Below, one piece after another: positions 1,345-21,919 of a stretch of 64,000 nucleotides of DNA. Positions within the stretch are counted from its first letter, which is position 1; every line of letters begins with the position of its first letter. Position numbers and translations under genes: made by a program. This DNA is from a virus, in the IMG/VR virus record IMGVR_UViG_3300020045_009879, positions 31,872 through 95,871 of that record. One strand, written 5' to 3'. Under the pieces are notes generated by a model. That model saw only the letters and a list, made by a program, of their open reading frames with translations, had not been told where the DNA came from and made no database searches.

Positions 1345-1347
1345 AAT

Positions 1348-2624: not shown

Positions 2625-2627
2625 ATC

Positions 2628-2933: not shown

Positions 2934-2935
2934 TT

Positions 2936-3247: not shown

Positions 3248-3450
3248 TGGCAACATTTGGAAGTTCTTGGAATGAAGATGATAAACCAATTGGACCAATG
3301 AGTCATTGGTTAGAAGATGATGAAGAGATTGATGATAGTCCATTGGCTCTACGCTCTCTTAAAGAAATCATGAATGATGGGGATGCAGAAAAGAAAATTG
3401 GACCAATGTCAAGTTGGTTGTCAAAAGACTATAACAAAAAACATAAATAA
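3247..3450 (+). CDS. Small acidic protein with duplicated IGPMSxWL motif
   Basis: 67 aa; TAATG coupling to upstream gene; IGPMSHWL and IGPMSSWL. Confidence 0.7.
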   Translation: MATFGSSWNEDDKPIGPMSHWLEDDEEIDDSPLALRSLKEIMNDGDAEKKIGPMSSWLSKDYNKKHK

Positions 3451-3451
3451 C

Positions 3452-3676
3452 ATGAGCAAAAAGACGTCAATTAAAAATAAACTTCAAGAAAGATTTGGAA
3501 TTTATTTTACGCAAAAGGAACTCTATAGGGCGTTATGTAGTTTTAGTGACAGTATTGACAGGACTTATACTATTAGTGAACTAGAAAGCCTCCTAGATGG
3601 CAAAGAACGGTTGCTGGAGGAGTTTTCTGAGTTTTTACTGAATGAATTTGAACCAGAACATAAATTTATAGCATAA
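3452..3676 (+). CDS. Hypothetical protein (start probably at 3452, MSKKTS...)
   Basis: ATG 1 nt after the upstream stop; the longer 3374 start would overlap the upstream gene by 77 nt. Confidence 0.6.
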   Translation: MSKKTSIKNKLQERFGIYFTQKELYRALCSFSDSIDRTYTISELESLLDGKERLLEEFSEFLLNEFEPEHKFIA

Positions 3677-3969: not shown

Positions 3970-6900
3970 CTATTTGTTCTGTGGTATTCCAGTGCTTCTA
4001 TCCCTAAATTTATAATAGACGTTTAGTATTGGGAATGTTTTTATAAACCTTTCCTTAACCTGCTGATCATTATAATATGGATCACCTAATAGATGATGAT
4101 AAAATGTTGTCATTAATTTTCTATAGTCATCTAAAAATCCTAACGCTGGAATAAGATTATCTGTTGTTGTCTTAAACGATCTTGGATCTATAAAAAATGT
4201 TATATCTTTAATAGTATTATTCATATTATTCATCAGAAGATATTTCCATCGTTTTGTTTCTTTATCATCGTCGTCAAGCGATGCAGACAGTAATAAATAT
4301 GCAGCAGCAAGAGTTAATAATACTTTTATCTCTATAAATTGTTTGCGAAGATTAGATATAAATAATTGCTTATCTTTTGTCAGCAATTTAATACCATCAA
4401 AAGATGCTTCTCCCTTAAACATTGCAAGTTTTGCAAATATACTACCCATCTGCGCAATACCAGAGAATAATCCCTCCCTTTGTACAAATTTTAACATGGT
4501 GGTATAAGTACCCTCGAAATCTCTACCAAGAACACCTAATGATTGTCTAGGCGCAAATCTGGTATATACTCCATCAGCAAGCCAGGACATACGATATTGA
4601 GCTACTAATCTGCCAACTATAGACCTTTTAAGCATGATAGAAGACTCTTTGGCCATGTTACCATGCAGTAACTGGTTAATAAATTTAACCTTATTCATAA
4701 AGGCTAAAAGCTCTTTGTTTCCAAGTATTGATTCTGAATTAGATCCCCAATCATTATTCTCACCAAATTCCTTTGCATTCCATGATCCATCAACATTAAA
4801 CGCATCAATAAGATTTCTTTCTTTACCATTGATATCTGTCATCTTAGTATGATGCATCATAGCATCCATAACTGATGTTCTTAAAATATAGTCACCCTCG
4901 CTAAGCCATCCAAAAGCACTAAAGAATTTAGTACTATACTTATTGGCACCGGCATCACCACCATAATTTTCAGCAAGAATCCCATTACGAACTGCAATAT
5001 TATGAATTTTGTTATTGGTTAAGTTCTTACTGCCTGCAGTTTTTTTTAAAGAGGACATAGCCCTGCCCCATGAGGCAAGAGCTTCTTTTGGTGTAAATTC
5101 AGATCTTCCTGCTGCATGAGAAAAAAAGTTTATTGAACCAAATAATATATTAGTAACGGCTGGAAATGGGTTAAAAGCAAATGTTTTGATAGCTGCACCA
5201 GTAATTAATATATCACCAGCTTGTGACCATACAAAATTAGAGCCGGTAGAATCTGTAAATTGTTTATAAACAGATATCTTGTAATCAAAATCTTCCTTAG
5301 TTATCTCGCCATTATCATACGCCCATGTAAGATCATCTATTAATTTTAAGATTTTACCACCGGCAATCTTTTCTGTCTCTAGAGTAACAAGAGACGGATA
5401 TTTCTTTAATATTTTATTGATGGCCGCCTCTTTGCCAAGCTTAGCAACTAAATCATTGAAATCTACAAGTATATTGATCGCTTTCTTTGGATCATTGATA
5501 GATATAATTTTTATATTATCATCATAAATCTTTTTAGCACTAACACCTTCTTTATCGGAGGATTTATTGTATAAATTATTGTTTATAACGTGGTCAATAA
5601 GCTTCCTTAGGTTGTGGAGTTTATCCTCCCCTCCATTACTTTTTTTTGTGTTGGCAACGTCAATAGTTCCATCTGCCTTTAATATAATCCTTCCAAAACT
5701 TTTATCATCAATGGCAGACTTTATGAGTAATGCATAATCCTCAATGGCAGATAAATGCTTATAAGTAATTGCCATCTTAGCAAATTCTATCAAATTACCC
5801 TCTAAATTATCACTCTTTTCGGCGACATCTAAATTTCTTAGATATTGCATTGGGATAACATTCTTAGGATTACCATCTCCATCGAGAAATTCAAGTTGCA
5901 TCCCATTCCTTGAAGTTACAGCACTCATGAGTCTACCTGACAGCGTAGTGGGAATACCCCTTAAACTACCCTTTAATAGCTTATTTAATAACTCTTTCCT
6001 TACATTGGGTATAAATGTTCCATCTATATCTTTTGAGGCATATCCTGGCAGATAAGAGGCATATTTTGTAAGCTCAGATGCGTGGGCATCATAAAACTCA
6101 AGCATCTTAGGATTAGACAATATTTTATTGACAAATCTATTATCATACGACAATAAATCTTTTCCGCTTGAACTATTTCTAATTGGTACCTCAACGATAT
6201 GCTTATCAATATCTCCGAACATCCTTATATCATCTTCAGATGCAGTATCATTATAAATGTAATTATAATATTCTGATGGAGATGTATTTTTTCTATACTC
6301 ATTAAGAAATGATTCTGATTCTGCCTCCGACTTACCCGAGGCCACAAGTTCTTTCTCCCTCTCTTCTATGTGGTCATATAGTTCAGTCCAACTTTGTTGT
6401 TTTACCTTAGCCTCTTCGATTAATTGCTTTGAATATTTCTCATCATGAGTGATGTTATTTAATTCGTTAAATAACTTATTTAAACCGTGTTCTGTAGATA
6501 ATAATTTTGTGTTAATAGTATAGACATTACTCTTTAATGCCTCTGATTTACGCTTAACTTCCCTTAACATTTTCGCTGCAGAATCCTTTTTATTACCATA
6601 CTTAATATCATTTATCTTCTCAACAAAGTCTTTATCAATTGTTTTCCTGAAGGTATAGTAACTTTTTGTGAATCTAGAGATAATGCCACCGTCCCAATTG
6701 CCATTTTCATCTGTTGACAACATGTCCTTAAAGTTAAGTCCAGCCTCTTTTAACTTTGCAAATAATGATTTAATTCTATTTGCCGCATCAAAATATTCAT
6801 TATGAGATTTTGAATTTGCAGACGTTATAAACTTATGTAATAGATTAACTATAGGCTTGTCGCTATAATGAGCTAACCCCAATGAATAGGCTCCTATTGT

Positions 6901-8130
6901 GCCTATATCAGACTCTCTAGACACGGCTGATGTAGGTATTTCTAGACCAAACATATCCTTACCAACCTTCTTGATGAATGAAGGCAATATTTTACTATGC
7001 AGTTTATCAAAATCAGCATTAAAAGCTTTTCTTTGAACACTCAGTACTCCTTCGAGAGTCTTTTTATCCAAGCGCATTCTTCCTCCGAATACATTACGAA
7101 GATTCTGCCACATAGAAATAGCTTCTCCTACAGCTTTTAATTCTTCTGCCCCTGGATTCTTGGAATTTAGTATAGAATTAATCCATGCAGCATTCTTTTC
7201 ATATAGTGCATCCAGGTTTGCAATGTTTTTCTTACTTGCTAATGTAGATAATTTGGTTTGCATTATCACCAAGTTCTTTTCGTGATGTTCTTTCTTCTGA
7301 ATTAATGCTGCCAATTCATTCATATTGGCATCTGTCTTACCAAGTAAATTGATCTGACTTTCTATCTCCTTAATTCTATTCTCAACCTTTCCAATAAGCC
7401 TATATAATTCTGCATTTCTTGCCTTAATTCTATCAATAACAAAATTAAGACCCATCTTTAGATTTACTTCAAGGGGGGAGTCTTTAAAGAATGCCCGAGA
7501 AAAATCATCTTCATACAATGCAGCAGGATCATATTCATTCTCTAACGTGAATAAATCTTCTTCGTCTAATATATTTTCCTCAATATAATTTAACTCTCCG
7601 TCGTATTCTTCATCGTTATCACCAGAAACAAACTCTTCTCCAATAGTATCATCGACATTATCCTCAACTTCACTTTCTGGGACATAATCAATTAGGTCAT
7701 CATCTATAATGGAATCAATATCTGCCTCTACTGGATCTTCGCTATCAGTATCATCCGGTAAACCCTCTTCAATATTATCACCTGATGGAATATTTTCTTT
7801 AGTATATTGATATTTCTGACTAGTATATTTCTCTCCAAAATCTATATTGAGTTTTAGATTAAAACTGTTTTGCTTACTCCGTAATATATCATTGGTACTA
7901 ACTGCAACACCGTTAAGTGTGTAGAAATGATTCTCTCCAACAGAACTACTATATTCGGCAAGAGACTTAACTAAGTTAACTGCATCTACCTTTGTTAATG
8001 TGGAGGTTCTTTCGAACTTATTTAATACATTAGAGGCAAGATTGAGGTATGTCTTTATGCCCTCTTCTCCGTATGTAGAGACTAATCTCTTTAATGTAGG
8101 ATCTTTTATATCTTTAATTTTGCAGGTCAT
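3970..8130 (-). CDS. Giant virion cargo/ejection protein (third of the vRNAP cluster)
   Basis: 1386 aa, helical/coiled-coil, hydrophobic segment near C-terminus; last gene of the crAss-type giant-protein trio. Confidence 0.75.
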   Translation of the reverse strand: MTCKIKDIKDPTLKRLVSTYGEEGIKTYLNLASNVLNKFERTSTLTKVDAVNLVKSLAEYSSSVGENHFYTLNGVAVSTNDILRSKQNSFNLKLNIDFGEKYTSQKYQYTKENIPSGDNIEEGLPDDTDSEDPVEADIDSIIDDDLIDYVPESEVEDNVDDTIGEEFVSGDNDEEYDGELNYIEENILDEEDLFTLENEYDPAALYEDDFSRAFFKDSPLEVNLKMGLNFVIDRIKARNAELYRLIGKVENRIKEIESQINLLGKTDANMNELAALIQKKEHHEKNLVIMQTKLSTLASKKNIANLDALYEKNAAWINSILNSKNPGAEELKAVGEAISMWQNLRNVFGGRMRLDKKTLEGVLSVQRKAFNADFDKLHSKILPSFIKKVGKDMFGLEIPTSAVSRESDIGTIGAYSLGLAHYSDKPIVNLLHKFITSANSKSHNEYFDAANRIKSLFAKLKEAGLNFKDMLSTDENGNWDGGIISRFTKSYYTFRKTIDKDFVEKINDIKYGNKKDSAAKMLREVKRKSEALKSNVYTINTKLLSTEHGLNKLFNELNNITHDEKYSKQLIEEAKVKQQSWTELYDHIEEREKELVASGKSEAESESFLNEYRKNTSPSEYYNYIYNDTASEDDIRMFGDIDKHIVEVPIRNSSSGKDLLSYDNRFVNKILSNPKMLEFYDAHASELTKYASYLPGYASKDIDGTFIPNVRKELLNKLLKGSLRGIPTTLSGRLMSAVTSRNGMQLEFLDGDGNPKNVIPMQYLRNLDVAEKSDNLEGNLIEFAKMAITYKHLSAIEDYALLIKSAIDDKSFGRIILKADGTIDVANTKKSNGGEDKLHNLRKLIDHVINNNLYNKSSDKEGVSAKKIYDDNIKIISINDPKKAINILVDFNDLVAKLGKEAAINKILKKYPSLVTLETEKIAGGKILKLIDDLTWAYDNGEITKEDFDYKISVYKQFTDSTGSNFVWSQAGDILITGAAIKTFAFNPFPAVTNILFGSINFFSHAAGRSEFTPKEALASWGRAMSSLKKTAGSKNLTNNKIHNIAVRNGILAENYGGDAGANKYSTKFFSAFGWLSEGDYILRTSVMDAMMHHTKMTDINGKERNLIDAFNVDGSWNAKEFGENNDWGSNSESILGNKELLAFMNKVKFINQLLHGNMAKESSIMLKRSIVGRLVAQYRMSWLADGVYTRFAPRQSLGVLGRDFEGTYTTMLKFVQREGLFSGIAQMGSIFAKLAMFKGEASFDGIKLLTKDKQLFISNLRKQFIEIKVLLTLAAAYLLLSASLDDDDKETKRWKYLLMNNMNNTIKDITFFIDPRSFKTTTDNLIPALGFLDDYRKLMTTFYHHLLGDPYYNDQQVKERFIKTFPILNVYYKFRDRSTGIPQNK

Positions 8131-8131
8131 A

Positions 8132-11100
8132 TTAACACTTAGTTTTAAATATATTATTATTTAATGCATGCCTAAAGGCGCTTCTTTCTTCTCTGGTGGA
8201 ATTACTCAAGAAATCCCTTACTGTACCAGTAATCTGTTGAGAATCAGAATCTATAATTTCATTTGGGGCATACTTTTGAGTTGCTGATCTGATAATATTC
8301 TTTTTAAGTTTCTTTGCCTTAGTATTCATTAATTCATTCGTAAGCATCATATTTTGAACCATGGCGGCCTCTAATACACTTTGCTGATTAACAGATGAAC
8401 CATTGAAGAAGGATACTATAGAGTCAAAGAATGATGCAAATTTACTAAATAACGTTTCGAGCAATGATTTACTTTTCTCTACACCAATCTTTTCGTATGT
8501 GCTATCGCTAAGATATACACTATTCATTAGATCTTGGATGTGTTTTCTAGATGATAGTTCTGAGATAAAGTCCATCTGACTATTTAGCATATACAAGGAT
8601 TTCCTTAGATCATCTTGCATATCTTTATCATCCGCAAAGATACTATTAATTGCCTCGGAATCCAACCTCCCATCTTTGATAAATTGTCCATATGTAAGTG
8701 GCTCATCATCAATTATAAAGTTAGCGCCATCAAAAGAGCTTACAATGGGTTCATCACTAATGGCACCCATGGCATCGTCGTATATCATGTCAACATTGTC
8801 AGCTATCTGTTTGAACCTGGGGTCGCCATTCTTACCAAGAAGATATGACTCTGCCATCATGGAGTGCTGTATCTCGTGTAATATCGTTTCTTTTGCAAAA
8901 GACATTGAGCCAGTCCTATCTATCTCTTGCTCAAATAAACCATTATATATTGTTATCTGACTCTTGCCATCTACAATATTAAACTCTGCAATAGAGTTAT
9001 TAACACTTGGTTCATCGCTGTATTTAACAGATATATCCTGAATATTATCTGGAAGTTGTTTCAGCAACTCTACAATCCATTTTGAATATGTAGTATCAAT
9101 CTGTTCTACTACAGGTAATAAAGATCTAACATCTGTCTGCTCCTTAAGCATACGCAGGAAGAATACCTTCTCTGTATTAAAGTCATTAGATAAAGAGTTA
9201 ATATTTGCCATTCCTCCAACAAAATAACCTGTAGATATTGCATCTGGTTTGTAATCAGTAAAATACCCAGAGTCGAATACCTTTTTACCAACCTTATTCA
9301 TTGAGGACTCAAAATAAGAGGCCGATCCTTTTAATATAGAATAGTCATATTTTTTGTATAATGCAAGCTTATTATTTCCACTACTTATCGGAGAATCAAA
9401 GATATATATATTAGCATTAGGAGAACCCTTAGAGCTTTTTATAAACAGAGGTATTTCCTCTAATTTAAAATTTTGCCCTATCCTTACAAAATTCCTGTCT
9501 AAACTTTTATGATAATTACCCCCGACAGAGTTAAAATTAGAATACCTGGAATCCAGTACATTAAATGGTATTATATACTGAGGATTGTTTCTATAGAATA
9601 AATTAATAAACTCATCTACATGTGATCCATCTCTCAGATCTCTTACTTTTTCTGCAAGCTTAGAATAGAACCCGATTGACTCAAGGGCATCTATTGGTAT
9701 CACTTTTACAAAACTTGTCTTGGTTTTATTGCCACTAGTAAGAAATTCATACATTATTATTGATGTAGTCAATTGTCTAACATCATCATCGGTATCTTTA
9801 GATAATGTATAGAATCCATCCATGGCCCTCTCTAAATCTGCATTGTTTTTTAGATCACCATTAAATGAAATGATTTTGTTTGTCTTATTAATAGACACAG
9901 ATGTAAGAAACTTATTATTTTTATATTTAGAGCTAGTACTTGACTGTAACTCCCTGATTTTCTTGGATATATTGGCACCAATTTCTTCTACCGTTCCGTG
10001 GATACCAAAAGATTCAGATATAACTTTAGAGAATACGTAAGACTTATACCCATCAACCACAGAACTTATCATCTGCGGTTTTGTCTTTTTGTTCAATCCG
10101 TTAAATAATGTAATCTTATCTATGGCGGTCATTAAAATACTACCATTATATCCAAGCACTTTATCTATGTCAAAGATTATATCCTCTGCCAAAACTAAAT
10201 TATTACCGGTGGTATTCAATTCTCCATTAAGAGATTGGGTAAACTTGTCAGAATTGATTATGGATCCATCATTACCTGAAGACAATATGCTACTTAATAA
10301 TAAGTTATTCTCTGCACTATTAGATTTAAATCCCTTATCAAATCCAGTTTGATTATTAAGATCAAAGAGTTTATTGGCTATCTTAGACAATGGGGTAAAG
10401 ATATTCTTCATAATATCTATCTGATGAGCCACCCATAACGCCTTTGTTTCTGGCAGTGCCCCTTGTCCGGATACAAGTTGCTGCCCCGTATTATAAATAT
10501 TATACAGTTCTTGCTCATTATAGACCTTGCTAGACAGTTTCTTTGTTTCAGTGGCAACTTGTACCGCTGTTACATCTAATTGCCTTAAAAGGTCTGCAAA
10601 TGCAATCTTTGTGGCAGTCTTAAGATTCAATGTTTTTCCGCTAGTTCTAACAACACCCTTTGAATTACCAATAAGACCAGATACTATCTTAACGATCTCT
10701 TGGTTTAGTATCGCTGGAACATATGTTAGTGGCAGTGAATTATTATTACTGTCGGATAATAACATAAGAGATTCTGCAATATTGAATGTAAAACTATTTA
10801 GTCCGTTGGGGATTAAATTACCATTCTTTGCATTGTCAATAGATTCTGATAGTAAAATAACTATATTTCTAAGTGCAGTTCGATCTTCGAAATCCAAACT
10901 AAGAGACGAATTGCTTCCGGTCCATTTGCCAACAACAGATTTGCCGTATGGATTTATGTATCTTAAAATCAATGGATTAGATCTTCCATTAAGACTAAGT
11001 TTTGATACGGATAAATCTTTAAAGATCATACCCTTCTTATATGCGAGTATAATGGACGACATTGCCTTTGCATAAATATCAATACCCCCTTTGGCGGACT

Positions 11101-14100
11101 GTTGTGATTTATATTCTTGTGTTTGACGCTGCCATGAATACCATGGTGCTTTTGGCTGTAATATCTTATATTTCTTGCCAGTATCTTTTAGATCATCGGC
11201 ATCTAATGCCTCAAGGGACATTCTTGCAACATTGGGGTTAGATAATACAGACTCAAATAAATCAACGTAATCATTCTCTATTGCTTGTCTAGAAACATCC
11301 TCTACAGATGGGCGACTATCTTCGTTAAAATTACTTTCTATGAAACTATTTACTGCGTCATTATTAATTGATACATGACCATTTTCATCGTATTGAGTTA
11401 CACCTTTTGGGATAGAGACAAGTTTATTATCTTTTGTTAAAAATGCATTCCTCCAATATTGGTATAATTTATCAATGTCAAAGTCGGATCCAGTCTGAAC
11501 AACGATTTCTTGCGGTACTATAACCATTGTGCCCATACCCTTAGGCGTAAATCCAACGATCTTAAATAACACCTGAGACTGATGCAACTGGTTAGGCAAA
11601 CGCATCCCTATGATGTTAAGTAGCGATGGATCTATATTGTTTAGGTCAATACTATTCATATTGACAGAACTTCCCATTGATATAAAGTCAAATGGTAAAA
11701 TTATTTCTGCAACATGAACTTCTTCGCCGCCATTCTCTTTAGGTTTTATTCTAGTGTATTTTAATTGCTCACCAGAATCCCTGCCGTTAAACATTACGAC
11801 GCCATCACGAGGAACAATTTCTGTCTTAACAGTAACCTTACCGCTCCCAGTCAGTGGGAACTGCGGATTAGCCCTGCCTGGTCTTTGCAGTTTAATGACA
11901 TCTGTATATTGAGAGAACAGAAATTCTTCTAGAGATTTCCTTGAATATGACCAGAACAATGGTAACCCATATTTATCTGCAACTAGTGCAGAGTTTGATT
12001 CATTATTTGATATACCAGAGTCAACTTTTATGGCTTTTTTAACTATCTTTTCAATGTCAAATTCGCCATCAGTCTTTAGAGATTCATCAATAGATTGTTT
12101 GGCTATCTTTGATAATTCTGCATTAATACTGTGTTTTCTGAGGTCTAACTGTTCCCCAGAAATCTTATCTCCATGATGGGTGAATTCTTCGTCATATAAC
12201 CCCCCAAGGATTGACTTATCAGCCTGAACAACATTCGTCTGTAATCCTTCACCTAAATGCGTAGGAGTCTCTTGTTGATAACCAAAACCAGTCCATGGAA
12301 GTTCTCCTGACGATTGGTCTAATGCAGCACGAAGATCTTTTGCATTTTTTATTGTAAATGCTGAATCTTTCCCGTATATTGATACGGGAGTAATGCCCCC
12401 CTGTTTGCCGGAAGATTTATGAGGAATCCTACCAATGTGTTGATCTTTAGAAGGATCTTCATCATAACCCATCTCCATAGCCTCAACAAGATTAACTAAA
12501 TCTTGGTTAACAGACTTTGCAAATTCTTGAGTTAAGGGTAGTTCTGCAGATTTCATGAACACCTTTACCGCAATGTTCTCTCCACCAATTTCTTTTACAA
12601 CAATGGCTACCTGTCTTGGTTTACCTGCACCGATAATAAAATGTTTACTATATTTTTTATTTACTGTGCCATCCTCTGCATATTGCCTTCTAAGCTGAAC
12701 AAATTCCCAATCTTTAATTACTCCAGTACGATATAATGCATCTAACTTATTATAGAAAGAAACATACTCTAAGCCATCGGTACCTTTACCAGTATATTTA
12801 TCGACTTGATTTTGCAGATTCTTTGGTAGAGACGTTAGATAGTCTTTACCGTCCGTACGGGAATCATCGACATAAGCAACCTTATAAGTTGGTTTACTAG
12901 ATATAACAGATCCATCGTTGAGAGTAATAGTGTATTCTCCAACTGCATCTACGGCTGGAGATATGTCTGATGACAATCTCTTCTGATACTCATTCATAAA
13001 TTTCTCCATCGCAGAGTTTATTGCGATAGCATTTGATGGATCTTTTATGCCATTGACCTTATTGTCATCTGACTCTGACTTAATCATTTTCTGTAAAGAC
13101 TGTGAGGATTGTGCTGGATCACCAGACATAACTAACCCAAACCCACCCATGATAGAGAATGAATTCATTGATGACTCCAGAGACAATAATGATAACACAC
13201 GAAGCATCTCATCATTATAGATATTATTCTTGTGTGATGAGGATTGATTTGGTGAGACCACAAACTCATCGTCAATTTGTTCGTCATCAAAGATATCTTC
13301 AGAAGCATATTCATTAGATACAGTCTGTTTCTTCATAAATGGAGCATATCCTTTTGATTTTCCCCATTCGTATTTTATTAGGTTAGTATAATATTTACTA
13401 CCACTGGTTTTAAGCAGACCTAGTTTCTCCCAACTATTTAAGTCTGAGCTTATCTGACTTATAAAATGATTATATAATGCTTCTTTAAATTTAGCCTCAA
13501 TATGCTTTTTATTAAGATCTAAATCGCCAATGCCTTTATCTGTATAAATTGAACCATCTTTATTTCTCTTTATCAATCCATTTAAAAATGATGCAGAATA
13601 AAAAAACTGAGAGTTATATTCATAGTTTGCACCAAGTTGTTTTTTCATCTCCTTAACAACATCGCCATCCTTATGCGTTAAAACGTATATCATTCTATCT
13701 AACTCTGCAGAAACAACGGTCATAGCATTAGACATTAACTCACTATCCATGATCTGTCTCTTGCCAAACCTACTAATCAACATGTTGCCATCAACGAATG
13801 ATATCAGGTCTGTAAGTTCTGCTTTTCCACCTTCTTCTGCAATAGCATTTAACTCAACTCGTGGCACCTTAAATATTGGAGACTCTTTTTTGTCAGACTT
13901 AGTAGTATCTAGAATAGACATAAAACTACCACCTTCTTGGAATAGATACATAGCATTGACATGAAGATCCACGTCACTAAGATTACTTCTCTCTGCACCA
14001 TCATTAGTGCCATACTCCTTCATGGCATAGTTTTCGTCATATTGGAATCCATTGGTAAACTCGTCGCTGGCAGATTCTATGATGCCATAATCTCCAACCC

Positions 14101-15961
14101 TTCCCCCAAAGTGTCTATTATTGAATAATGCCAATCTTCTTAACCCAACAGTAGACGCCAATGTATCTCTTAATGCAATATTAGTCTGCAGATTTCTGAT
14201 AAGATTAAAGTTTGGAGATGGTTGTTTGTAATTATATCTAGGTTTACCGCCAATACCAATGAAGTTATTTGCAAAGAATCTATTAGACGCCTTCCCTTCA
14301 ATATTGGCTAAGAATCTTAAGCCGGTCTGATTTAGGTCGTTAATAAGTTTATCGGATATTGCAGACGAAGTGATCTCGTCTGCGTTTAATTTTTTAATAT
14401 CAAACTTAGACAAAATATCTGCAATAGAACCAAATACACCAGACTTTAAGTGTGATGTGGAGAATCCTTTAGATGCAAGATTATAAGAGTTCCTTCTATT
14501 GTAAAGAGTCTTAGCGTCACCAGATAGCAATGCAGCAAAAGAATTATCAGACAGTTTTATCCCAAGATCCTCAAGCATTCTAGTGGCATAACCCTTAATT
14601 AAATTATTCTTATCTTCATTGGATAAAGATCTATTCTCTTCTAAAAGGGTTTTTAGTGATTTAAACTCCTCACCAATACTCTTTATATGATCAGCATAGC
14701 CAAACAGATTCCCCACGAATTTAGACTCATACAGAAGGTCTAGTACGTTAGATATGTCTGAATACCATTGCTTGATAACAACGCTCTCTATGCGACTATT
14801 ATTGGCCTTGGCGACCCTGCTAGCGGCTGGATCTTTACTGTTGATTAAAATGACAACGGGTTGGTTCCGCTGTTTATTCATTGCATTCTGAAACTGAATC
14901 CTAAGTTGCTGATTTTTACTATCGTTCAGAGTATTGTATACAACCTCAAAGAAATTATCTTTCGGATGGTTTTTTGACTCATTTAAGAGTGTGTTCATCA
15001 TACCTTTCTCTGAGAAATCATTATTGGCAGTCAGCACCATTAACACTTCTTTATAGACCCTAGACTGGTCATAGAGTGTTGTTACCCCTAGATTATTGCC
15101 TCCAAAGTCTTTAATACCCATCATCATCGCCTTTACCTGTGCAGACGAGTATTCTTTAGGGTCCTTGCCAAGTGAATCGTCAACATCAAAAGATTTCTCC
15201 ACTACATCACTATCAGTAGCATCCTGCATAGTAGCATCTTCTGTAACTATTGAATTTAAAAACTCATCATCAAGTGAGAGTAATTGTTTTAATTTTCTTT
15301 TATTTCTAGACCTAAAGCGAATACCATTTAATTCTAAAAGGTTTATTGCATTATCTTGTAACTTATTCCATGCGTCATTGTCAAGAATCTTATCGTAAGA
15401 CCTATTGGCAGTTTTTAATGCCCTTAATAGTGCCTCATCATTTTGTGTTAACGTACTCTTACCGGCTAGTTTGGAAATGTCTTTTTCTACAGCATCCTTA
15501 AGCGTTGTAATAGTATTTTTGGCACTAGTCATAATATCCAATACCTTAGCACTTTTCTGGTGTAATAAGGCCTGAGACACCTCATAGGTAATACTATCTA
15601 CTGCAGCAGTCTTTTCTCTGAGCGACAATACTTTACCATCAGATGTTTTAACTGTATATGTGAAGTCCCGATTTTTCTTGGGGATATATTCTATTGGACT
15701 ATTTTTTGTTACCTTACTTTCCTCGTTTTGAATATTCTGCATGGCAACAGACGCCTCTTCTGTACTTAAACCACGCAACAATGTGCTCCTAGTCTCTTCG
15801 TCTAACTTAATAAACTCACTGGCATATGGAAGGCCGTCATTAGATATATTGCCATGGGTCTTATTCCAGATATTATGGGCAATATTCTCATCCTCTACCC
15901 TTTTGAGTAAATTCTTATATGAGTCGTGATTTACATTTGGACATGTTACTTTCCTTGCCAT
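8132..15961 (-). CDS. Virion-packaged single-chain RNA polymerase (crAss-type) with C-terminal zincin-like domain
   Basis: 2609 aa; RLPNQ...TGSDFDIDKL catalytic motif (DFDID at 11471-11485); TDG motif; HEIQH at 8864-8878. Confidence 0.92.
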   Translation of the reverse strand: MARKVTCPNVNHDSYKNLLKRVEDENIAHNIWNKTHGNISNDGLPYASEFIKLDEETRSTLLRGLSTEEASVAMQNIQNEESKVTKNSPIEYIPKKNRDFTYTVKTSDGKVLSLREKTAAVDSITYEVSQALLHQKSAKVLDIMTSAKNTITTLKDAVEKDISKLAGKSTLTQNDEALLRALKTANRSYDKILDNDAWNKLQDNAINLLELNGIRFRSRNKRKLKQLLSLDDEFLNSIVTEDATMQDATDSDVVEKSFDVDDSLGKDPKEYSSAQVKAMMMGIKDFGGNNLGVTTLYDQSRVYKEVLMVLTANNDFSEKGMMNTLLNESKNHPKDNFFEVVYNTLNDSKNQQLRIQFQNAMNKQRNQPVVILINSKDPAASRVAKANNSRIESVVIKQWYSDISNVLDLLYESKFVGNLFGYADHIKSIGEEFKSLKTLLEENRSLSNEDKNNLIKGYATRMLEDLGIKLSDNSFAALLSGDAKTLYNRRNSYNLASKGFSTSHLKSGVFGSIADILSKFDIKKLNADEITSSAISDKLINDLNQTGLRFLANIEGKASNRFFANNFIGIGGKPRYNYKQPSPNFNLIRNLQTNIALRDTLASTVGLRRLALFNNRHFGGRVGDYGIIESASDEFTNGFQYDENYAMKEYGTNDGAERSNLSDVDLHVNAMYLFQEGGSFMSILDTTKSDKKESPIFKVPRVELNAIAEEGGKAELTDLISFVDGNMLISRFGKRQIMDSELMSNAMTVVSAELDRMIYVLTHKDGDVVKEMKKQLGANYEYNSQFFYSASFLNGLIKRNKDGSIYTDKGIGDLDLNKKHIEAKFKEALYNHFISQISSDLNSWEKLGLLKTSGSKYYTNLIKYEWGKSKGYAPFMKKQTVSNEYASEDIFDDEQIDDEFVVSPNQSSSHKNNIYNDEMLRVLSLLSLESSMNSFSIMGGFGLVMSGDPAQSSQSLQKMIKSESDDNKVNGIKDPSNAIAINSAMEKFMNEYQKRLSSDISPAVDAVGEYTITLNDGSVISSKPTYKVAYVDDSRTDGKDYLTSLPKNLQNQVDKYTGKGTDGLEYVSFYNKLDALYRTGVIKDWEFVQLRRQYAEDGTVNKKYSKHFIIGAGKPRQVAIVVKEIGGENIAVKVFMKSAELPLTQEFAKSVNQDLVNLVEAMEMGYDEDPSKDQHIGRIPHKSSGKQGGITPVSIYGKDSAFTIKNAKDLRAALDQSSGELPWTGFGYQQETPTHLGEGLQTNVVQADKSILGGLYDEEFTHHGDKISGEQLDLRKHSINAELSKIAKQSIDESLKTDGEFDIEKIVKKAIKVDSGISNNESNSALVADKYGLPLFWSYSRKSLEEFLFSQYTDVIKLQRPGRANPQFPLTGSGKVTVKTEIVPRDGVVMFNGRDSGEQLKYTRIKPKENGGEEVHVAEIILPFDFISMGSSVNMNSIDLNNIDPSLLNIIGMRLPNQLHQSQVLFKIVGFTPKGMGTMVIVPQEIVVQTGSDFDIDKLYQYWRNAFLTKDNKLVSIPKGVTQYDENGHVSINNDAVNSFIESNFNEDSRPSVEDVSRQAIENDYVDLFESVLSNPNVARMSLEALDADDLKDTGKKYKILQPKAPWYSWQRQTQEYKSQQSAKGGIDIYAKAMSSIILAYKKGMIFKDLSVSKLSLNGRSNPLILRYINPYGKSVVGKWTGSNSSLSLDFEDRTALRNIVILLSESIDNAKNGNLIPNGLNSFTFNIAESLMLLSDSNNNSLPLTYVPAILNQEIVKIVSGLIGNSKGVVRTSGKTLNLKTATKIAFADLLRQLDVTAVQVATETKKLSSKVYNEQELYNIYNTGQQLVSGQGALPETKALWVAHQIDIMKNIFTPLSKIANKLFDLNNQTGFDKGFKSNSAENNLLLSSILSSGNDGSIINSDKFTQSLNGELNTTGNNLVLAEDIIFDIDKVLGYNGSILMTAIDKITLFNGLNKKTKPQMISSVVDGYKSYVFSKVISESFGIHGTVEEIGANISKKIRELQSSTSSKYKNNKFLTSVSINKTNKIISFNGDLKNNADLERAMDGFYTLSKDTDDDVRQLTTSIIMYEFLTSGNKTKTSFVKVIPIDALESIGFYSKLAEKVRDLRDGSHVDEFINLFYRNNPQYIIPFNVLDSRYSNFNSVGGNYHKSLDRNFVRIGQNFKLEEIPLFIKSSKGSPNANIYIFDSPISSGNNKLALYKKYDYSILKGSASYFESSMNKVGKKVFDSGYFTDYKPDAISTGYFVGGMANINSLSNDFNTEKVFFLRMLKEQTDVRSLLPVVEQIDTTYSKWIVELLKQLPDNIQDISVKYSDEPSVNNSIAEFNIVDGKSQITIYNGLFEQEIDRTGSMSFAKETILHEIQHSMMAESYLLGKNGDPRFKQIADNVDMIYDDAMGAISDEPIVSSFDGANFIIDDEPLTYGQFIKDGRLDSEAINSIFADDKDMQDDLRKSLYMLNSQMDFISELSSRKHIQDLMNSVYLSDSTYEKIGVEKSKSLLETLFSKFASFFDSIVSFFNGSSVNQQSVLEAAMVQNMMLTNELMNTKAKKLKKNIIRSATQKYAPNEIIDSDSQQITGTVRDFLSNSTREERSAFRHALNNNIFKTKC

Positions 15962-15962
15962 A

Positions 15963-18900
15963 TTATTTCTTGCATATATCGTGAATATTCTCTATCTCTT
16001 CGTCATCATCCATGGTTATCTCAAAACCACCAGAGGTAATTGTTACCTCATTAGAACTGCCAATAACTTCAATTTTCTTTGAAGTATTACTATTATCCGC
16101 AACAGTCTCGGTAACGATTGGTACAACAGTTAGCACCTCCACTATAGGCTTTTTAGATTCTACCGATATATTAGGAATTTCAAATTCTAATACTGGTTGC
16201 ACAAAATATACTCCTTTAGTAGTATTGCCAAACGGTATCTCGCCAGCAACCTTAAATTGAATCATCCTATTGTTCTTATAGAAATCGCTAATAGTCTCTG
16301 CCTCAACAGTATGCGTGCCGTCAGGATGAATCATTATTACATTATTGTCGGTATTACCATTGTTATCTAGGCCCAGATGCTTCTTGGAAAAGTTCATTAA
16401 CATACTAGATGCGTCGGACGTCAACATATTTATCTCCGCATTAGTAGGTTTGACCGCTTCGAAAATAGTCTTAGTGCTTCCCGCGTGTTTCCATTCAATA
16501 ACGAATTTATCATTCTCATCAAAGTTCATGTGGAATTGCCATCCCTTAGATTTAGACGAATTTAACAACGTGGTAATATATGAGTATAAACCCATTCTCC
16601 TTAACTGATCAATGCTTTTTGTTTCTGGATTCAATCCATTTCTTAATCTATATTTAGATCCTAGATCATGAAGTATATCTTTTACACCTTTATTTTTATA
16701 GAACATTTCTAATGCGGTACCTATTGATGCAGACCATTTCTCTCCAAGTGGACTTGCGTAGGCTATCTGTGGAGACAGCATGCCATTAGCGGTGGGAACC
16801 ATTACAACGGGAGTACCATCAATAGCCTTGAACATTATACCATTAGTAATTGGATTACCATTCACATCCTGCGCAACACCACCTTGCATAAACCCCCACA
16901 TATTACCAGATGAACCAGTATATTTCTTTACATCTTCCTCTAGGTTCGGAGCACTCTCGGTGATTGGCATCTTTTCTTCTGTAGAGAAAATCATTCCTGC
17001 ACCTACGTTGGTAATTTTAGATTCTACCTTAAAATTCTTATTGCCCTTATTGAACTGCTTTTTAAATTCTTCCCTAAGTTTATCTATTGAATCTATGTCT
17101 TGTACTATTTTTGTCTCACCCTCTTTATTATCCGCAGGAGCAATGTGTGTTCTTTCTCTAGCATCATTTCTTTCTTCTAGCCATGCGTGTTCTGGCAGAT
17201 AACCAACCAATTCATCATTAATAAATATGCCGATTGGCATTTCATTCTTTTTGTTATCCCCATATGTAAGATTATCTTTGGCTGCATCACTAGGTGATAC
17301 GTCTTTAGTGGCATAAGAACCATCTTTTTCGTTTACTATTGGCCTTCCATTTATACCTCTTTGAATGGATTTAACGGCGCCATCGACGACTCTTAAGGTT
17401 ATTTTTGCACCATTAGTAAAGGAGAAATCTGAGTTCTTTAAAAACTCCTGATTGACACTGTCAGGGTTACTCTTAATTAACCATTCGCCAGTAGATTCAT
17501 TCTTTACGTAGGAATATTTTGATGCAAGATAGTTTACAGCAATTGCCATTAACCTCTTTCTGGTATCCATTAATGTAGATTTCTTCTCACTATCTAGTAT
17601 CTTTGACGCTAATTCTCTGGCCTCCTTGGGAGATCTATTTACTATACGATCTGGCCTCTTATTCGTTGGTTCAACCTCTTTTTTGTCAGAATATGTTTTG
17701 ATGATGGACGACATGTCTAATTGACCACCCTCAGCGACATGTGCAACAACTTGATCGTAAATATCTTTGCCAATAATATTCTCTCCAATAACAACCTTAG
17801 TGTCTGGATTTTCAACAGCCTGAAACATATGCAATTGGTTGTTTAGCTCCTGTGCGCCCTTCATTACCAAAACAATAGCCTCTAATTCAGAAGTTGCATT
17901 CGTAAGATGCCGTATCTTAAACTTCTTTCCGTCAGGAGTTGGGAATAGTGTAAAAAAATTATCTGGATTACCATTTACACCATTTTCTTTTACTAAATGC
18001 ACTGCTGGATTTTCTTTATCAAATTTAGATCCCGTAATATCTTCATATTTATCTTGCGGAACACTGGTCAGTTTTACAATGTTATCTTTTACCTTTTGGG
18101 TACCATCTTCGCTACTAGTTACATACTTTGAATGCATATATTCTTCCTGTACGGAATTACCACTATTGGTAACTATAGACGGTATAACGCTATTAACATT
18201 ATCAACACTTGGAGTAGTTCTAACCACTTCATTTGCATATATTTGCTTTTCGCCGATAGGAGTCTCAATTACAATAGGTTCTGTCTTTGGAGTAATATCA
18301 GCAGCATTCTTTGTAGCCTTTGCATTATCAATTTGATTCTTAACCTCTTCGGCCTGCTTCTTCCTATCAGACCTGAGCGCATCCCTTGTTTCTTCTGAAA
18401 TTGCAGCTTTATATGCTTCTTTGGCCTCGTCCATCATCGTTGTTAGATTTGACCTAAGTGCTATTAAATTCTTTATATTATCCTTGCTATTGAATAATTT
18501 TTCATCTAATGTTCCGTCAAAGTTGATATTTTGCTCTAAAGATTTTTGATTTTCAATTTCCTTATCCGTTGACTCAATTTTGTCTTTCAACACATTTATG
18601 CCAATAACATATCCAAGTATTTCTTTAGCATTTTCTCTACCGGATAAGTCTTCCCCCTTAGCAAATTTTACAACACTATTAAGTTTCTCTATGGCAAGTT
18701 GCGCCCTCTCTTTTTCTTTGGGGGTGGAATTTCTATTTTCTAAAACATTCTGAAATGCGGCAATCTTTGTTTGTGTTCCAGATAGATTAATGCCTACACC
18801 TTCCTCCGAGTTTAATGCATCGACTGCTACAGAAGATATAGCCATATCATATCCAAATGCCTCAGGGTCTGCGTCTACATCTTTAGATGTCATAAAGTCT

Positions 18901-20231
18901 CTAATACCATCGACCTGTCCTATTGATGTTTCTGCCTTAGATATTACATCTTTTTTCCCAGATAATAGTGCTGCGTCTTTTAAATCCTTAACTGCGCCCT
19001 CGACTCTTTTATATGCAGGAACAATATAATGTGTTATGGCAGTATTACCACCACCGCCAATGGCACCGAGCATCATGGATTCTAAACCCTGTGGTTCAAC
19101 TAAATGTGATAATGATCTAGATAAATTGTGTTTGAATTTATCGCCCTGTTCGCCCTTTAAAGACGATTCTGACTGTGCTATATAGTTAACGCCCTCTTCT
19201 GCGCCTTCCTGCAATGATTCTATGCCAATAGATCTTGCAATACCCCCCTCTAACTTAGTTATGGTTCCACGTGCTCCAGTAAATAGTCCTGCAGATGTTA
19301 GGTTAGATAATACGTTCAATCTGTTAATACTAACGCTTACGTCGGCAGCAGCAGAGGCTGCATCTCTAGCATCATCATCAGACATTCCCTGTGCCATCTT
19401 CATCTGATACACCTGTTGATATTGCGGCACAGCCTCCATAACGCTCTCTGCCTGATTTAGAGCCACGGCATTCAATACTGTGGGGGCAGCATATAATCTT
19501 TTTGCTACAGAGTTTTCTATGAACTTAGGAATAGCACTCTCAGTTATCTTTCCTGCACTAAGCAGCTTTTGTGCACGTGCATTCGCGCCTAGTTTTAATG
19601 CTTCTATACCGGTCTTACCAGCAACAGCATCAGCAGCAGCAGACATCAACCCACCAGTTATATATCCAGTAAGAGCAAAAGATCCAACAGAGTTTAATAG
19701 TTGCGATAAATTATCCCAGTTATAACCACTGTCAGAGAAATTAAATGACTCTCCTGGGTTTTTCCTGTAGATAGGTGCTTTTGAATTAACCCATGCCATC
19801 ATAGAGTCGGTGGCCTTTTCTATTGGATTGCCATACTCATTGTCAATATTAGCATAGTCCTCAAAGTCTAATATATCTGCAAGATTACCTATTGTCCCGA
19901 GTATTGTGTTAGGGATAAGCCTCTTAGCAGTATTAAACATCTGCTGATAACCAGACTGAGAGTCTGCCCTAAGCGCATTAATATTAGTATCTTCGGAGAG
20001 TAGTGCAGCATTAGGAATGTATTCTGAATAATTTCCAATAGGTTCAACCATGCCAGCAGTATCATAGGATACTCTAGAGGCAATCTTTGGATCATACACA
20101 TCCCTTGGTTTGCCTATGTTATATATAGGATTACCAAACGCATCGCGTTCGTAAGATGCAGCATTCTCTATCTGTGCAATTTGATTTTGCTTATATAATG
20201 GTTTGGCTGAATTTGGAATCATTATTTCCAA
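15963..20231 (-). CDS. Giant virion cargo/ejection protein (first of the vRNAP cluster)
   Basis: 1422 aa; N-terminal Gly/Ala-rich hydrophobic helices and EGAEEGVNY motif typical of ejected proteins; synteny. Confidence 0.75.
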   Translation of the reverse strand: MEIMIPNSAKPLYKQNQIAQIENAASYERDAFGNPIYNIGKPRDVYDPKIASRVSYDTAGMVEPIGNYSEYIPNAALLSEDTNINALRADSQSGYQQMFNTAKRLIPNTILGTIGNLADILDFEDYANIDNEYGNPIEKATDSMMAWVNSKAPIYRKNPGESFNFSDSGYNWDNLSQLLNSVGSFALTGYITGGLMSAAADAVAGKTGIEALKLGANARAQKLLSAGKITESAIPKFIENSVAKRLYAAPTVLNAVALNQAESVMEAVPQYQQVYQMKMAQGMSDDDARDAASAAADVSVSINRLNVLSNLTSAGLFTGARGTITKLEGGIARSIGIESLQEGAEEGVNYIAQSESSLKGEQGDKFKHNLSRSLSHLVEPQGLESMMLGAIGGGGNTAITHYIVPAYKRVEGAVKDLKDAALLSGKKDVISKAETSIGQVDGIRDFMTSKDVDADPEAFGYDMAISSVAVDALNSEEGVGINLSGTQTKIAAFQNVLENRNSTPKEKERAQLAIEKLNSVVKFAKGEDLSGRENAKEILGYVIGINVLKDKIESTDKEIENQKSLEQNINFDGTLDEKLFNSKDNIKNLIALRSNLTTMMDEAKEAYKAAISEETRDALRSDRKKQAEEVKNQIDNAKATKNAADITPKTEPIVIETPIGEKQIYANEVVRTTPSVDNVNSVIPSIVTNSGNSVQEEYMHSKYVTSSEDGTQKVKDNIVKLTSVPQDKYEDITGSKFDKENPAVHLVKENGVNGNPDNFFTLFPTPDGKKFKIRHLTNATSELEAIVLVMKGAQELNNQLHMFQAVENPDTKVVIGENIIGKDIYDQVVAHVAEGGQLDMSSIIKTYSDKKEVEPTNKRPDRIVNRSPKEARELASKILDSEKKSTLMDTRKRLMAIAVNYLASKYSYVKNESTGEWLIKSNPDSVNQEFLKNSDFSFTNGAKITLRVVDGAVKSIQRGINGRPIVNEKDGSYATKDVSPSDAAKDNLTYGDNKKNEMPIGIFINDELVGYLPEHAWLEERNDARERTHIAPADNKEGETKIVQDIDSIDKLREEFKKQFNKGNKNFKVESKITNVGAGMIFSTEEKMPITESAPNLEEDVKKYTGSSGNMWGFMQGGVAQDVNGNPITNGIMFKAIDGTPVVMVPTANGMLSPQIAYASPLGEKWSASIGTALEMFYKNKGVKDILHDLGSKYRLRNGLNPETKSIDQLRRMGLYSYITTLLNSSKSKGWQFHMNFDENDKFVIEWKHAGSTKTIFEAVKPTNAEINMLTSDASSMLMNFSKKHLGLDNNGNTDNNVIMIHPDGTHTVEAETISDFYKNNRMIQFKVAGEIPFGNTTKGVYFVQPVLEFEIPNISVESKKPIVEVLTVVPIVTETVADNSNTSKKIEVIGSSNEVTITSGGFEITMDDDEEIENIHDICKK

Positions 20232-21841
20232 GCTTTAGATGAGCGATATATATCTTCGGCCCTCTGGATTGAATTTGTTGCGTCTTGATCTCGCTGAGAA
20301 GACGTCTCTGGATTATGGAGAACATTTACGGCCTTTTTTGCTGCATAATATAGGGGAGAGGTGGGGTTAATATTGATCGTTCGCGGTGGCATACGTTTTG
20401 TCCCCTCCTTGTACTCAATTAATACTGATATAAATGGTTTCCCGGTTCCATTGAAACTTCGCCTACCATCTTTGTCTACCAAAGATTTACCCTGAAATCC
20501 AAGATGAGTAACTTCCGTGTTAGTTATTTCGGCAGTACCATCCTTAATTTTCTCTAAAAGATCATTATCCTCAGAAGAGTAACCTCTATTCACAAAATCT
20601 CCAGAGATCAAACCATACCGCAGTGGTTCGTCTAACGTTTGCCTTATATTGTAAAGAACTTCTTCCGACGCTGTCTTTCCAAGGTCGGCTACTTGTCCTT
20701 TATTTATTCTAAATTTCTGTGTATGTGTGAAATATGGATCTGTCCTTAATTCGTCTTTTAACTGTTCTCTCTTTTGCACTAATCCCTCAGGATCAAATAA
20801 TCCAGATTTATCCAGTATTGATGGAGTATAATCTCTCCATTTTTGATTTTCCTCTGTAATTCTGCGCTGCATACTATCATAATCATACTTGCCATTAGTT
20901 AATTGCCTTGTGGCAACATCTAATTGCTCTTTCTTGACTGGATTTTCTGCTGCCAAAGTTAATACATCATCACTGGGTTGTAGTATGTTTAATGTTGAAC
21001 TATCTTCCTGATCAATAAAGTCCGTTCTGGTTTCTTTCGCCCCATTTTTGCCCTTATAGTTTTCTTTCATATATTGTGCTGAGACCGGTGCACGCTCCAT
21101 TCCACCAACAACACCAGACATAATACCGCCGGTAATAGCATCTCTTACCTCTGAATGTGTGGGATCTAAACCCCTAGATTTTGCTATCTCATTAACCTGT
21201 GCATCAACAAGGCTCTTAAATTTAGGATCTGTCTGATATGCTTTAAATGCATCATCCTGAGTTTTAAATCCATGGACGAAATTCATTATGCCAAGATCAA
21301 GATCTGTTGTGTCTCTTCCAGTAATACCCTGTGCATAATTCTTTCCATATGCGGCCCCAAGACCAGTGAGTTTATCTCTGCTTACAACCTGAAAACTATT
21401 TAATGCACTAGGATCTTTCCTGTATTCATCGAAGGATTTCTCTAGTGGACTTGTTCCTACGATAATGTTATCACCATCCATTCTGGCCTTAGAATACTCT
21501 GCGCCCCATTTCTCTCTCGTCTTGGCAAAGTCCTGCATTGGTAAAACCTGGGTGGCGTATAATTGCCTAAGTTGTCTTGCATCGTCTACATTCTTCTGTG
21601 TGGCGCCTTCTTTGGATATTTTATTAAGAACTTCGTTATACTTCTTAGTAAACTCTTCTTGCTTAGGTGCAGCCTCTCCTAATGCCCCTTGTAAGGTCAA
21701 ATTAGCCTCATTCATGGCATCAACCTGAGACGTTAGCGCTTGATCCCTCTTGTATAGTTCTTGCGGCCCAAACATGGACTCCTGCATTGTCATTGGAGAA
21801 TATTCTGCAATTGGTGCATTTCCCCAGAATCTATTTGCCAT
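20222..21841 (-). CDS. Virion cargo protein (crAss C2-like)
   Basis: 539 aa; N-terminal YSPMTMQE..P motif; lies between C1-like genes and the giant trio. Confidence 0.6.
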   Translation of the reverse strand: MANRFWGNAPIAEYSPMTMQESMFGPQELYKRDQALTSQVDAMNEANLTLQGALGEAAPKQEEFTKKYNEVLNKISKEGATQKNVDDARQLRQLYATQVLPMQDFAKTREKWGAEYSKARMDGDNIIVGTSPLEKSFDEYRKDPSALNSFQVVSRDKLTGLGAAYGKNYAQGITGRDTTDLDLGIMNFVHGFKTQDDAFKAYQTDPKFKSLVDAQVNEIAKSRGLDPTHSEVRDAITGGIMSGVVGGMERAPVSAQYMKENYKGKNGAKETRTDFIDQEDSSTLNILQPSDDVLTLAAENPVKKEQLDVATRQLTNGKYDYDSMQRRITEENQKWRDYTPSILDKSGLFDPEGLVQKREQLKDELRTDPYFTHTQKFRINKGQVADLGKTASEEVLYNIRQTLDEPLRYGLISGDFVNRGYSSEDNDLLEKIKDGTAEITNTEVTHLGFQGKSLVDKDGRRSFNGTGKPFISVLIEYKEGTKRMPPRTININPTSPLYYAAKKAVNVLHNPETSSQRDQDATNSIQRAEDIYRSSKAWK

Positions 21842-21855
21842 ATAATTATTTTTTA

Positions 21856-21886
21856 CAAATGTAGTGTATTATTAGCGCAGATGCAA
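21856..21886 (-). promoter_or_regulatory. Bacteroidota primary-sigma promoter (-33/-7)
   Basis: Minus strand TTG-N20-TACATTTG just upstream of the ATG at 21841. Confidence 0.75.
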
Positions 21887-21919
21887 TATATCAATTAGTC
21901 CATTAGATTAACAGAACCT

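Follow-up and report, generated by a model that had tools for sequence, protein, structure and literature searches.

RNA polymerase cargo of crassviruses and related systems

In the human gut, crassviruses are the most abundant phages. Among them, phi14:2 and crAss001 encode blocks of three giant proteins with a DFDxD two-barrel RNA polymerase (RNAP) in the middle (g067-g066-g065 and gp47-gp50-gp49, respectively), positioned in the structural module behind the tail and cargo genes. Here, we describe a block of the same composition and position in a 64,000-nucleotide (nt) stretch of viral DNA, positions 31,872 to 95,871 of the IMG/VR record IMGVR_UViG_3300020045_009879 (hereafter, the window). 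Its three genes are back-to-back open reading frames (ORFs) on the minus strand, denoted p1, p2 and p3 from upstream to downstream. The window shares its pattern of terminal cysteine (Cys) residues with the crassvirus blocks, and comparison of the available genomes shows that these proteins have been purged of all Cys except one per chain end facing the next protein, with a pair present where the genes are separate and absent where they are fused. Identity of the window proteins to those of phi14:2 and crAss001 is confined to the p2 core (~23-25%), and none of the three has a match in Pfam or PHROGs.

Packaging of the block is documented by mass spectrometry (MS) in phi14:2 and crAss001 only. 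In phi14:2, g067, g066 and g065 were all found in virions, and in crAss001, gp47, gp49 and gp50 were detected by MS as capsid cargo, thought to exit partly unfolded through constrictions of <50 Å (PMC10172136). The crAss001 virion also contains inter-subunit disulfides in the gp57 dimer, the tail hub and the ring proteins R1 and R2 (PMC10172136). These bonds, found in the same virus order as the tether proposed below, staple fixed proteins of the tail and portal vertex rather than mobile cargo, and are not formed by terminal single-Cys pairs of otherwise Cys-free proteins. Fusion of the three crAss proteins into a polyprotein is already known (bioRxiv 10.1101/2020.03.07.982082).

Comparable cargo occurs in N4-like phages, in which N4 gp50 and DEV gp71/gp72/gp73 resemble the trio as giant virion RNAP cargo ejected through the envelope and extremely depleted of Cys, a depletion ascribed to passage through the periplasm (PMC11445570). 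The N4 virion RNAP is one chain with an N-terminal domain, a core and a C-terminal domain, like the Cys-free triple fusions described below, and this three-part parallel has been raised before (PMC13434306). However, the N4-type RNAP belongs to an unrelated fold family, has no Cys at its ends, and no chain of separate proteins has been proposed for N4. Similar in mode of action only are the AB-type toxins, such as clostridial neurotoxins (PMC6899712), in which one disulfide holds two chains together during translocation, and its reduction in the target cytoplasm releases the active part. They are not homologous to the trio; furthermore, whereas the toxin bond is proven and joins fragments of a nicked precursor, the trio would consist of separate gene products joined end to end.

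Cysteines of the window trio are confined to the gene junctions

The three genes, their Cys codons and the two junctions are as follows.

15963..20222, minus strand: p1, first giant cargo protein, 1419 amino acids (aa) from the ATG at 20222; sole Cys 3 residues from the C-terminus
15972..15974, minus strand: Cys codon TGC at the C-terminal tip of p1 (...HDICKK, then stop), C1417 from the ATG start
15959..15965, minus strand: junction 1, TAATATG, consisting of the p1 stop TAA, 1 base and the p2 ATG
8132..15961, minus strand: p2, virion RNAP homolog of 2609 aa, with residue 7 and the C-terminal residue as its only Cys
15941..15943, minus strand: p2 Cys7 codon TGT (MARKVTCPN)
8135..8137, minus strand: codon TGT of the last residue of p2, Cys2609 (...FKTKC, then stop)
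8128..8134, minus strand: junction 2, TAATATG, consisting of the p2 stop TAA, 1 base and the p3 ATG
3970..8130, minus strand: p3, third giant cargo protein (1386 aa), homologous to gp49 of crAss001 and g065 of phi14:2; C3 is the only Cys
8122..8124, minus strand: p3 Cys3 codon TGC (MTCKI)

A sequence-only reading of the window had counted only four Cys in the three proteins, all at junction-facing ends, and had warned that internal ones might have been overlooked. Retranslation returned the same residues at the same nt positions: the translated ORFs contain 4 Cys in ~5,414 residues, all 4 at the two gene junctions, with no internal Cys in p1, p2 or p3. The outer ends of the series, namely, the N-terminus of p1 and the C-terminus of p3, are free of Cys, as that reading had also maintained. 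Its length for the first protein (1422 aa, with the Cys as C1420) needs revision. This count corresponds to an alternative start, TTG at 20231, whereas the ATG at 20222, which overlaps the upstream stop as TAATG, is more likely to be the start codon, yielding 1419 aa and C1417; the nt coordinates of the Cys codon are unaffected.

Cys accounts for 0.07% of the trio compared to 0.61% (85 in 13,850 aa) of the window ORFs outside the cargo block, a frequency at which ~33 Cys would be expected in the trio. If 4 Cys were placed at random, the chance that all would fall ≤7 residues from the four junction-facing ends is (28/5414)^4 = ~7e-10. The placement observed in the window is confirmed as real and far beyond chance. 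Near-total depletion relative to the proteome is the feature by which the trio resembles N4 gp50 and DEV gp71; unlike in the N4-type proteins, the termini are not Cys-free but carry four invariant Cys. The trio does not take the single-ORF p1p2p3 form, with stops at 15963-15965 and 8132-8134, each followed by a change of frame.

Identity of the three genes

The sequence-only reading had taken the middle protein for a virion RNAP, and three lines of evidence bear this out: a profile match, a catalytic motif and the structural-module context. The p2 core (aa ~1130-1530) shares 23-26% identity with the ‘putative RNA polymerase’ of crAss001-type phages, and a profile built from 15 p2 relatives (alignment A1) matched 6VR4 (6vr4_A, phi14:2 gp66) in the PDB with E=1.8e-138 over profile positions 107-2102. 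The profile was needed for this match: a single-sequence phmmer search of p2 against the PDB returned none, and a scan of viral contigs with the p2 sequence alone was likewise without a match. The catalytic motif is located as follows.

11471..11485, minus strand: catalytic DFDID motif of p2, aa 1493-1497, within GSDFDIDKLY (aa 1491-1500), with G, S, D, D, D and L invariant in A1

The gene order in the window is TerL, portal, major capsid protein, virion structural protein, two Cys-free ORFs and p1-p2-p3, and p3 matches crAss001 gp49 and phi14:2 g065; p2 thus occupies a Crassvirales-type position in the structural module, with a giant RNAP-associated gene on either side. Judging from these matches, p2 is a virion RNAP of the phi14:2 gp66 type and p1-p2-p3 is the RNA-polymerase cargo block of a divergent crAss-like phage. 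By analogy with phi14:2 and crAss001, the trio is probably packed and ejected by the phage of the window.

Terminal cysteines are conserved in orthologs and cultured phages

Relatives of p2 with 47-92% identity have Cys at residue 7 and at position −1 or −2 (counted from the C-terminus), with 0-2 other Cys; C3 is kept in p3 relatives (50-89% identity), as is the sole Cys at −3 in p1 relatives (42-85% identity). In an alignment of 15 p2-alone proteins sharing 18-50% identity, only 38 columns are invariant, C7 and C2609 being two of them, and Cys2609 is invariant in both alignments A1 and A3. Similarly, C3 of p3 is one of 10 invariant columns across 26 p3 proteins with 16-89% identity.

The same arrangement recurs in the two phages with MS-detected cargo. 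In phi14:2, the p1-type g067 has its sole Cys as the last residue, the p2-type virion RNAP g066 has Cys only at C3 and C2179, and the sole Cys of the p3-type g065 is C3. In crAss001, the p1-type gp47 has a sole Cys at −3, the p2-type gp50 has C5, C2404 (−9) and one internal Cys (C1334), and the p3-type gp49 has C5 only. In this phage, gp47 lies on the strand opposite gp50-gp49 and does not border the gp50 start, but its C-terminal Cys is still kept, which argues that the terminal Cys are not a by-product of a nucleotide signal at the junction.

Junction cysteines follow gene fusion and fission

A HMMER search of the full library, for which the p2 core served as query, identified 729 relatives; among the best 150, almost all have Cys only at residues 3-7 and/or −1 to −4. 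Iterated hidden Markov models (HMMs) for p1 and p3, built from hmmsearch alignments, allowed us to sort 170 proteins by architecture, with the p1 HMM finding the p1 domain fused to p2 in many relatives. None of the 11 p1p2p3 triple fusions (4,738-6,139 aa) has an N-terminal or a C-terminal Cys, and 9 of the 11 have no Cys at all. The p1p2 fusions lack the N-terminal Cys (0/28) and keep the C-terminal one (26/28), the p2p3 fusions display the reverse (N-terminal Cys in 52/62, C-terminal in 0/62), and most of the 69 p2-alone proteins have both. In the fused relative P0027, Ile is aligned to C7 of the window; alignment of the p1 C-terminal tail to fused relatives produced weak matches only.

Gene context was assessed in 80 IMG/VR crAss-like loci, 76 of which are non-redundant. 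At 63 of the 66 intact junctions, Cys is found ≤12 residues from the end on both sides, so that, as in AB-type toxins, each chain has one Cys placed to pair with the other chain. By contrast, free ends with Cys were not observed (0/43 p1 N-termini and 0/53 p3 C-termini) compared to 10% N-terminal and 19% C-terminal Cys among background ORFs. Overall Cys content is 0.64% in background ORFs and 0.070% in the module. Junction spacing is mostly −8 to +35 nt, with pairs persisting over gaps of 82, 135, 483 and 504 nt.

Each of the three exceptions has its own features. In L065, the Cys is at −15. L078 (3706-18331) has an apparent p1p2N | p2Cp3 split with overlapping ORFs and no Cys at the break, and is best read as a triple fusion with a frameshift, either programmed or due to a sequencing error. 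In L072, p2 lacks a tip Cys and is followed by a 3.1-kb insert.

In L058 (1397-18918), p2 has undergone a lineage-specific split at approximately profile position 1171. The two resulting genes are 483 nt apart, the gap holding an unrelated small ORF of ~156 aa, and a separate Cys pair is present at the new junction (...KKCE / MACEY...). The position of the p2/p3 junction has also shifted relative to a zincin-like motif, which in the window is located as follows.

8864..8878, minus strand: zincin-like HExxH motif of p2 (HEIQH, aa 2362-2366), within a folded domain ~250 aa ahead of the C-terminal Cys; both H and the E do not vary in A3

The junction lies after this motif in the window and before it in phi14:2, and the HExxH domain itself is located in p2 in the window, in g065 in phi14:2 and in gp47 in crAss001. 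Considered together with the L058 split, this shows that Cys pairs arise anew at new breaks.

Some loci depart from the common layout. The p2 tip is without Cys in the clade of L041, L059 and L072. In the clade of L048, L056, L060, L062 and L073, the p2-type protein reaches ~4,300 aa and contains 10-11 internal Cys, with the p1|p2 pair still there. In L041 (18434-21860), p2 and three small genes are followed by an 887-aa protein in which Cys occupies residue 3 and position −2, and the next protein starts with MDC; these two resemble an additional Cys-tipped pair separated from the main block.

Phylogenetic control

To account for shared ancestry, we used a FastTree phylogeny of the p2 core (207 rows, 721 columns), for which rows were filtered by core coverage and, among those passing, only near-duplicates were dropped. 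The p1-p2 fusion changed state at least 26 times on the tree, providing 18 independent contrasts on supported branches; Cys changed the same way in ~17 of the 18 and the opposite way in 0 (p ~1.5e-5). For the p2-p3 fusion, there were at least 14 changes and 8 independent contrasts, with Cys changing the same way in ~8/8 and the opposite way in 0 (p ~0.008). On the N side of p2, 99 split proteins have the Cys and 6 do not, and the 52 fused ones all lack it; on the C side, the respective numbers are 75, 3 and 85, again with no fused protein carrying the Cys.

The sequence-only reading had predicted that terminal Cys would be conserved as junction pairs in orthologs, and gained or lost together upon gene fission or fusion. 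Both predictions hold, the former in the relatives of the window, crAss001, phi14:2 and 63/66 junctions of the 76 loci, and the latter in the absence of the Cys from fused genes, with which the tree contrasts agree. At the level of genome comparison, these results show that each junction pair is under strong junction-specific selection and becomes dispensable once a peptide bond joins the parts.

Structure of the junction-facing ends

Among 163 N-terminal tips, the Cys is at residue 3 (68 tips), 4 (56), 5 (25) or 6-8 (11); among 141 C-terminal tips, it is at −1 (36), −2 (64), −3 (26) or −4 (10). No conserved His, Asp, Glu or second Cys was found ≤8-12 residues from the tip Cys in either set. 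The C-terminal Cys is preceded by a Lys-rich stretch, a flank that should lower the pKa of the thiol.

AlphaFold2 models of the two ends meeting at junction 2 indicate that the C-terminal 420 aa of p2 form a folded HExxH domain followed by ~50 disordered residues, two short helices and an unstructured stretch of the last 8 residues, which ends in the Cys, whereas the N-terminal 350 aa of p3 start with a 10-residue coil containing C3, followed by a small confident domain (aa 11-100). In the models, both junction-2 Cys are thus on exposed, flexible ends, since both are placed on unstructured termini. A Foldseek search with the model of the p2 C-terminal region produced no match at E≤0.001, the top matches being Zn peptidases at E≥0.046. 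The best structural match of the p2 HExxH domain (aa 2190-2609, nt 8135-9394) was 8vb2_A (Z 8.4, root-mean-square deviation 3.7, 149 aligned residues), a chain of the PhiM1 phage pre-infection ejectosome entry; zincin peptidases scored lower, at Z 4-5 (VIA).

A putative cysteine tether between the cargo proteins

We consider it probable, if short of assured, that successive proteins are tethered through their facing Cys, C-terminal in one and N-terminal in the next, most likely by a disulfide, giving a thread-like pseudo-polyprotein. In the particle, Cys7 of p2 would form a bond with the C-terminal Cys of p1, and Cys3 of p3 with that of p2, each Cys pair substituting for the peptide bond of the fused relatives. 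Because the Cys are 0-3 residues from the C-terminus or 2-7 residues from the N-terminus, on flexible tails, the product would be a nearly linear pseudo-polyprotein of ~5,400 residues, the functional equivalent of the single-chain fusions, and could be packed as one unit and threaded through the tail. By analogy to AB toxins, reductants of the host cytoplasm would separate the three proteins after delivery, and the purge of other Cys would avoid periplasmic trapping as well as mispairing with the functional pairs.

The steps of this scenario differ in strength. Head-to-tail pairing of the chain ends, which the sequence-only reading had proposed together with a disulfide, is strongly supported by the ortholog, free-end and fusion comparisons; in particular, that a pair is dispensable once a peptide bond joins the parts suggests that it joins successive chains. 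For the disulfide chemistry and its part in packing and ejection, plausible is the appropriate word, as it is for the further proposals of that reading that the bond would fix stoichiometry and ejection order and would come apart in the reducing cytoplasm. A disulfide is favored because there is one thiol per tip and there are no co-ligands, because the purge of other Cys would avoid mispairing, and because Cys at the extreme ends would give a near-linear, threadable product. Furthermore, crAss001 particles do contain inter-subunit disulfides (PMC10172136), and ejected proteins that avoid thiols would tolerate only Cys that are already oxidised. Whether the same holds across Crassvirales we regard as evenly balanced: there, the split cargo block would be daisy-chained by terminal disulfides, packed and ejected as one thread and cut by thiol reductases of the host cytoplasm, as a counterpart of the AB-toxin disulfide and a post-translational substitute for a polyprotein.

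Several points weigh against a disulfide-linked thread. The comparative data would fit a disulfide or another Cys-Cys-dependent link alike. The cytoplasm in which phages are assembled is reducing, and the habitat of gut phages is anoxic, both of which make a disulfide harder to form. The p2 of the L048 group carries 11 internal Cys, and among the proteins of the tree set judged complete, there is no Cys ≤15 residues from the end at 6 of the 105 N-termini and 3 of the 78 C-termini that are split, including p2 of L041 and L059. Finally, the fused relatives are believed to undergo cleavage once packaged (bioRxiv 10.1101/2020.03.07.982082); if so, continuity of the chain may matter only at assembly and not at ejection.

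Two alternatives retain the functional importance of the tips. The tips might dock non-covalently, with each other or with a shared third partner, the Cys serving recognition or transient assembly and a disulfide forming only by chance oxidation after lysis. Recurrent motifs after the N-terminal Cys of p2 and p3 (C-P-N-x-N-S, C-x-Y-x-x-N-G and C-N-F-x-A-P-N-G) hint at recognition, and docking would be compatible with assembly under reducing conditions. However, the Cys is the only invariant residue of the tip, with the surrounding motifs differing between clades, and an invariant lone Cys in otherwise Cys-purged proteins is best explained by thiol chemistry; a third partner, moreover, would leave the 0/96 Cys at free ends unexplained. 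We therefore hold docking to be unlikely. A metal ion (Zn, Fe or Cu) shared by the facing Cys would give a tether of the same topology that is sensitive to chelators or pH; it would obey the pairing rule, as would any link dependent on two Cys, and neither a reducing cytoplasm nor an anoxic gut would preclude its formation. The single thiol per tip and the missing His, Asp, Glu or second Cys ≤8-12 residues away (163 N-terminal and 141 C-terminal tips), the Lys-rich flanks, and the rarity and weakness of two-coordinate thiolate sites for Zn or Fe make a metal bridge quite improbable.

The remaining two explanations would deprive the pairs of any function at the protein level. The Cys codons could be by-products of a nucleotide signal at coupled junctions, such as TAATATG-type overlaps or re-initiation signals, as might be suspected from the stop-1 nt-start layout shared by both window junctions and from the spacing of −8 to +35 nt at most junctions in relatives. 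We deem this very improbable, given that gp47 of crAss001 keeps its C-terminal Cys on the opposite strand and away from the gp50 start, that pairs persist across the 82, 135, 483 and 504 nt gaps, which can hold other small genes, and that the position of the Cys varies (3-8 and −1 to −4), with both TGT and TGC in use. Chance placement of residual Cys in proteins that are Cys-poor owing to periplasm passage, as in N4-like phages, is next to negligible as an explanation. Cys depletion is indeed known for the ejected N4 gp50 and DEV gp71 (PMC11445570), but these N4-type proteins have no Cys at all, termini included, and chance would have to account for the ~7e-10 of the window alone, for a rule upheld in 76 loci and 170 proteins, none of the 96 free ends having a Cys, and for the phylogenetically independent contrasts.

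Other known roles of such Cys were considered and rejected. Lipoprotein-type N-terminal Cys do not apply, there being no signal peptide or lipobox and the Cys being at residue 3-7. Cys 0-3 residues from the C-end and 2-7 from the N-end leave no room for the halves of a split intein and trans-splicing, for which there was also no Pfam match. A Rad50-type zinc hook needs at least 2 ligands per chain (CxxC or Cys and His), whereas each tip offers one Cys and no conserved His, Asp or second Cys close by. Homodimer disulfides would not explain Cys at junction-facing ends only, and intramolecular closure of p2 from N- to C-terminus is at odds with the two-gene architectures, which keep exactly the head-to-tail pairs.

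Neighboring genes in the window

Two ORFs upstream of p1 are also free of Cys.

20222..24595, minus strand: two upstream Cys-free ORFs, of 539 aa (20222-21841) and 891 aa (21920-24595)

The 891-aa ORF has an SLT_3 lysozyme-like domain (aa 330-407), and the similarity of both ORFs to the crAss001 cargo proteins gp45/gp46 is marginal only. They are likely to be further ejected cargo, corresponding to gp45/gp46 and standing outside the Cys chain.

The large terminase (60572-63841, minus strand) is 1089 aa long with 14 Cys, compared to 700-830 positions in the matched terminase profiles; the TerL match covers aa 108-591, aa 600-933 match other TerL, primase and helicase-loader families, and LAGLIDADG_3 is matched below threshold at aa 800-862. 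The extra region may be an intein or a homing-endonuclease insert. A plus-strand ORF of 254 aa (1616-2380) has a C-x3-C-x2-C cluster (C34, C38 and C41) and no Pfam match. The small plus-strand ORFs at 357-3676 have ~2% Cys, in contrast to the cargo block.

Relation to previous work and implications

The Cys depletion of N4-like ejected proteins, the fusion of crAss proteins into a polyprotein and the structural disulfides of crAss001 are already known; neither the junction-Cys rule nor a cargo tether is described in the papers searched. The gp66 preprint mentions neither cysteine nor disulfide (bioRxiv 10.1101/2020.03.07.982082), the crAss001 atlas does not mention cysteine and describes disulfides only for tail and portal-vertex proteins (PMC10172136), and a 2026 paper on N4 mentions neither the rule nor a tether (PMC13434306). 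Targeted full-text literature searches also returned no description of either.

The Cys rule can aid annotation, marking the true starts and ends of giant genes and telling real splits from frameshift artefacts, as in L078. How crassviruses store and deliver their RNA polymerase cargo has been raised as an open question (PMC10172136, PMC13434306). A conserved tether, if true, would explain how three giant proteins are packed in a fixed ratio and fed through a narrow tail, why their genes are free to fuse and split in evolution, and why every other Cys has been purged from them.

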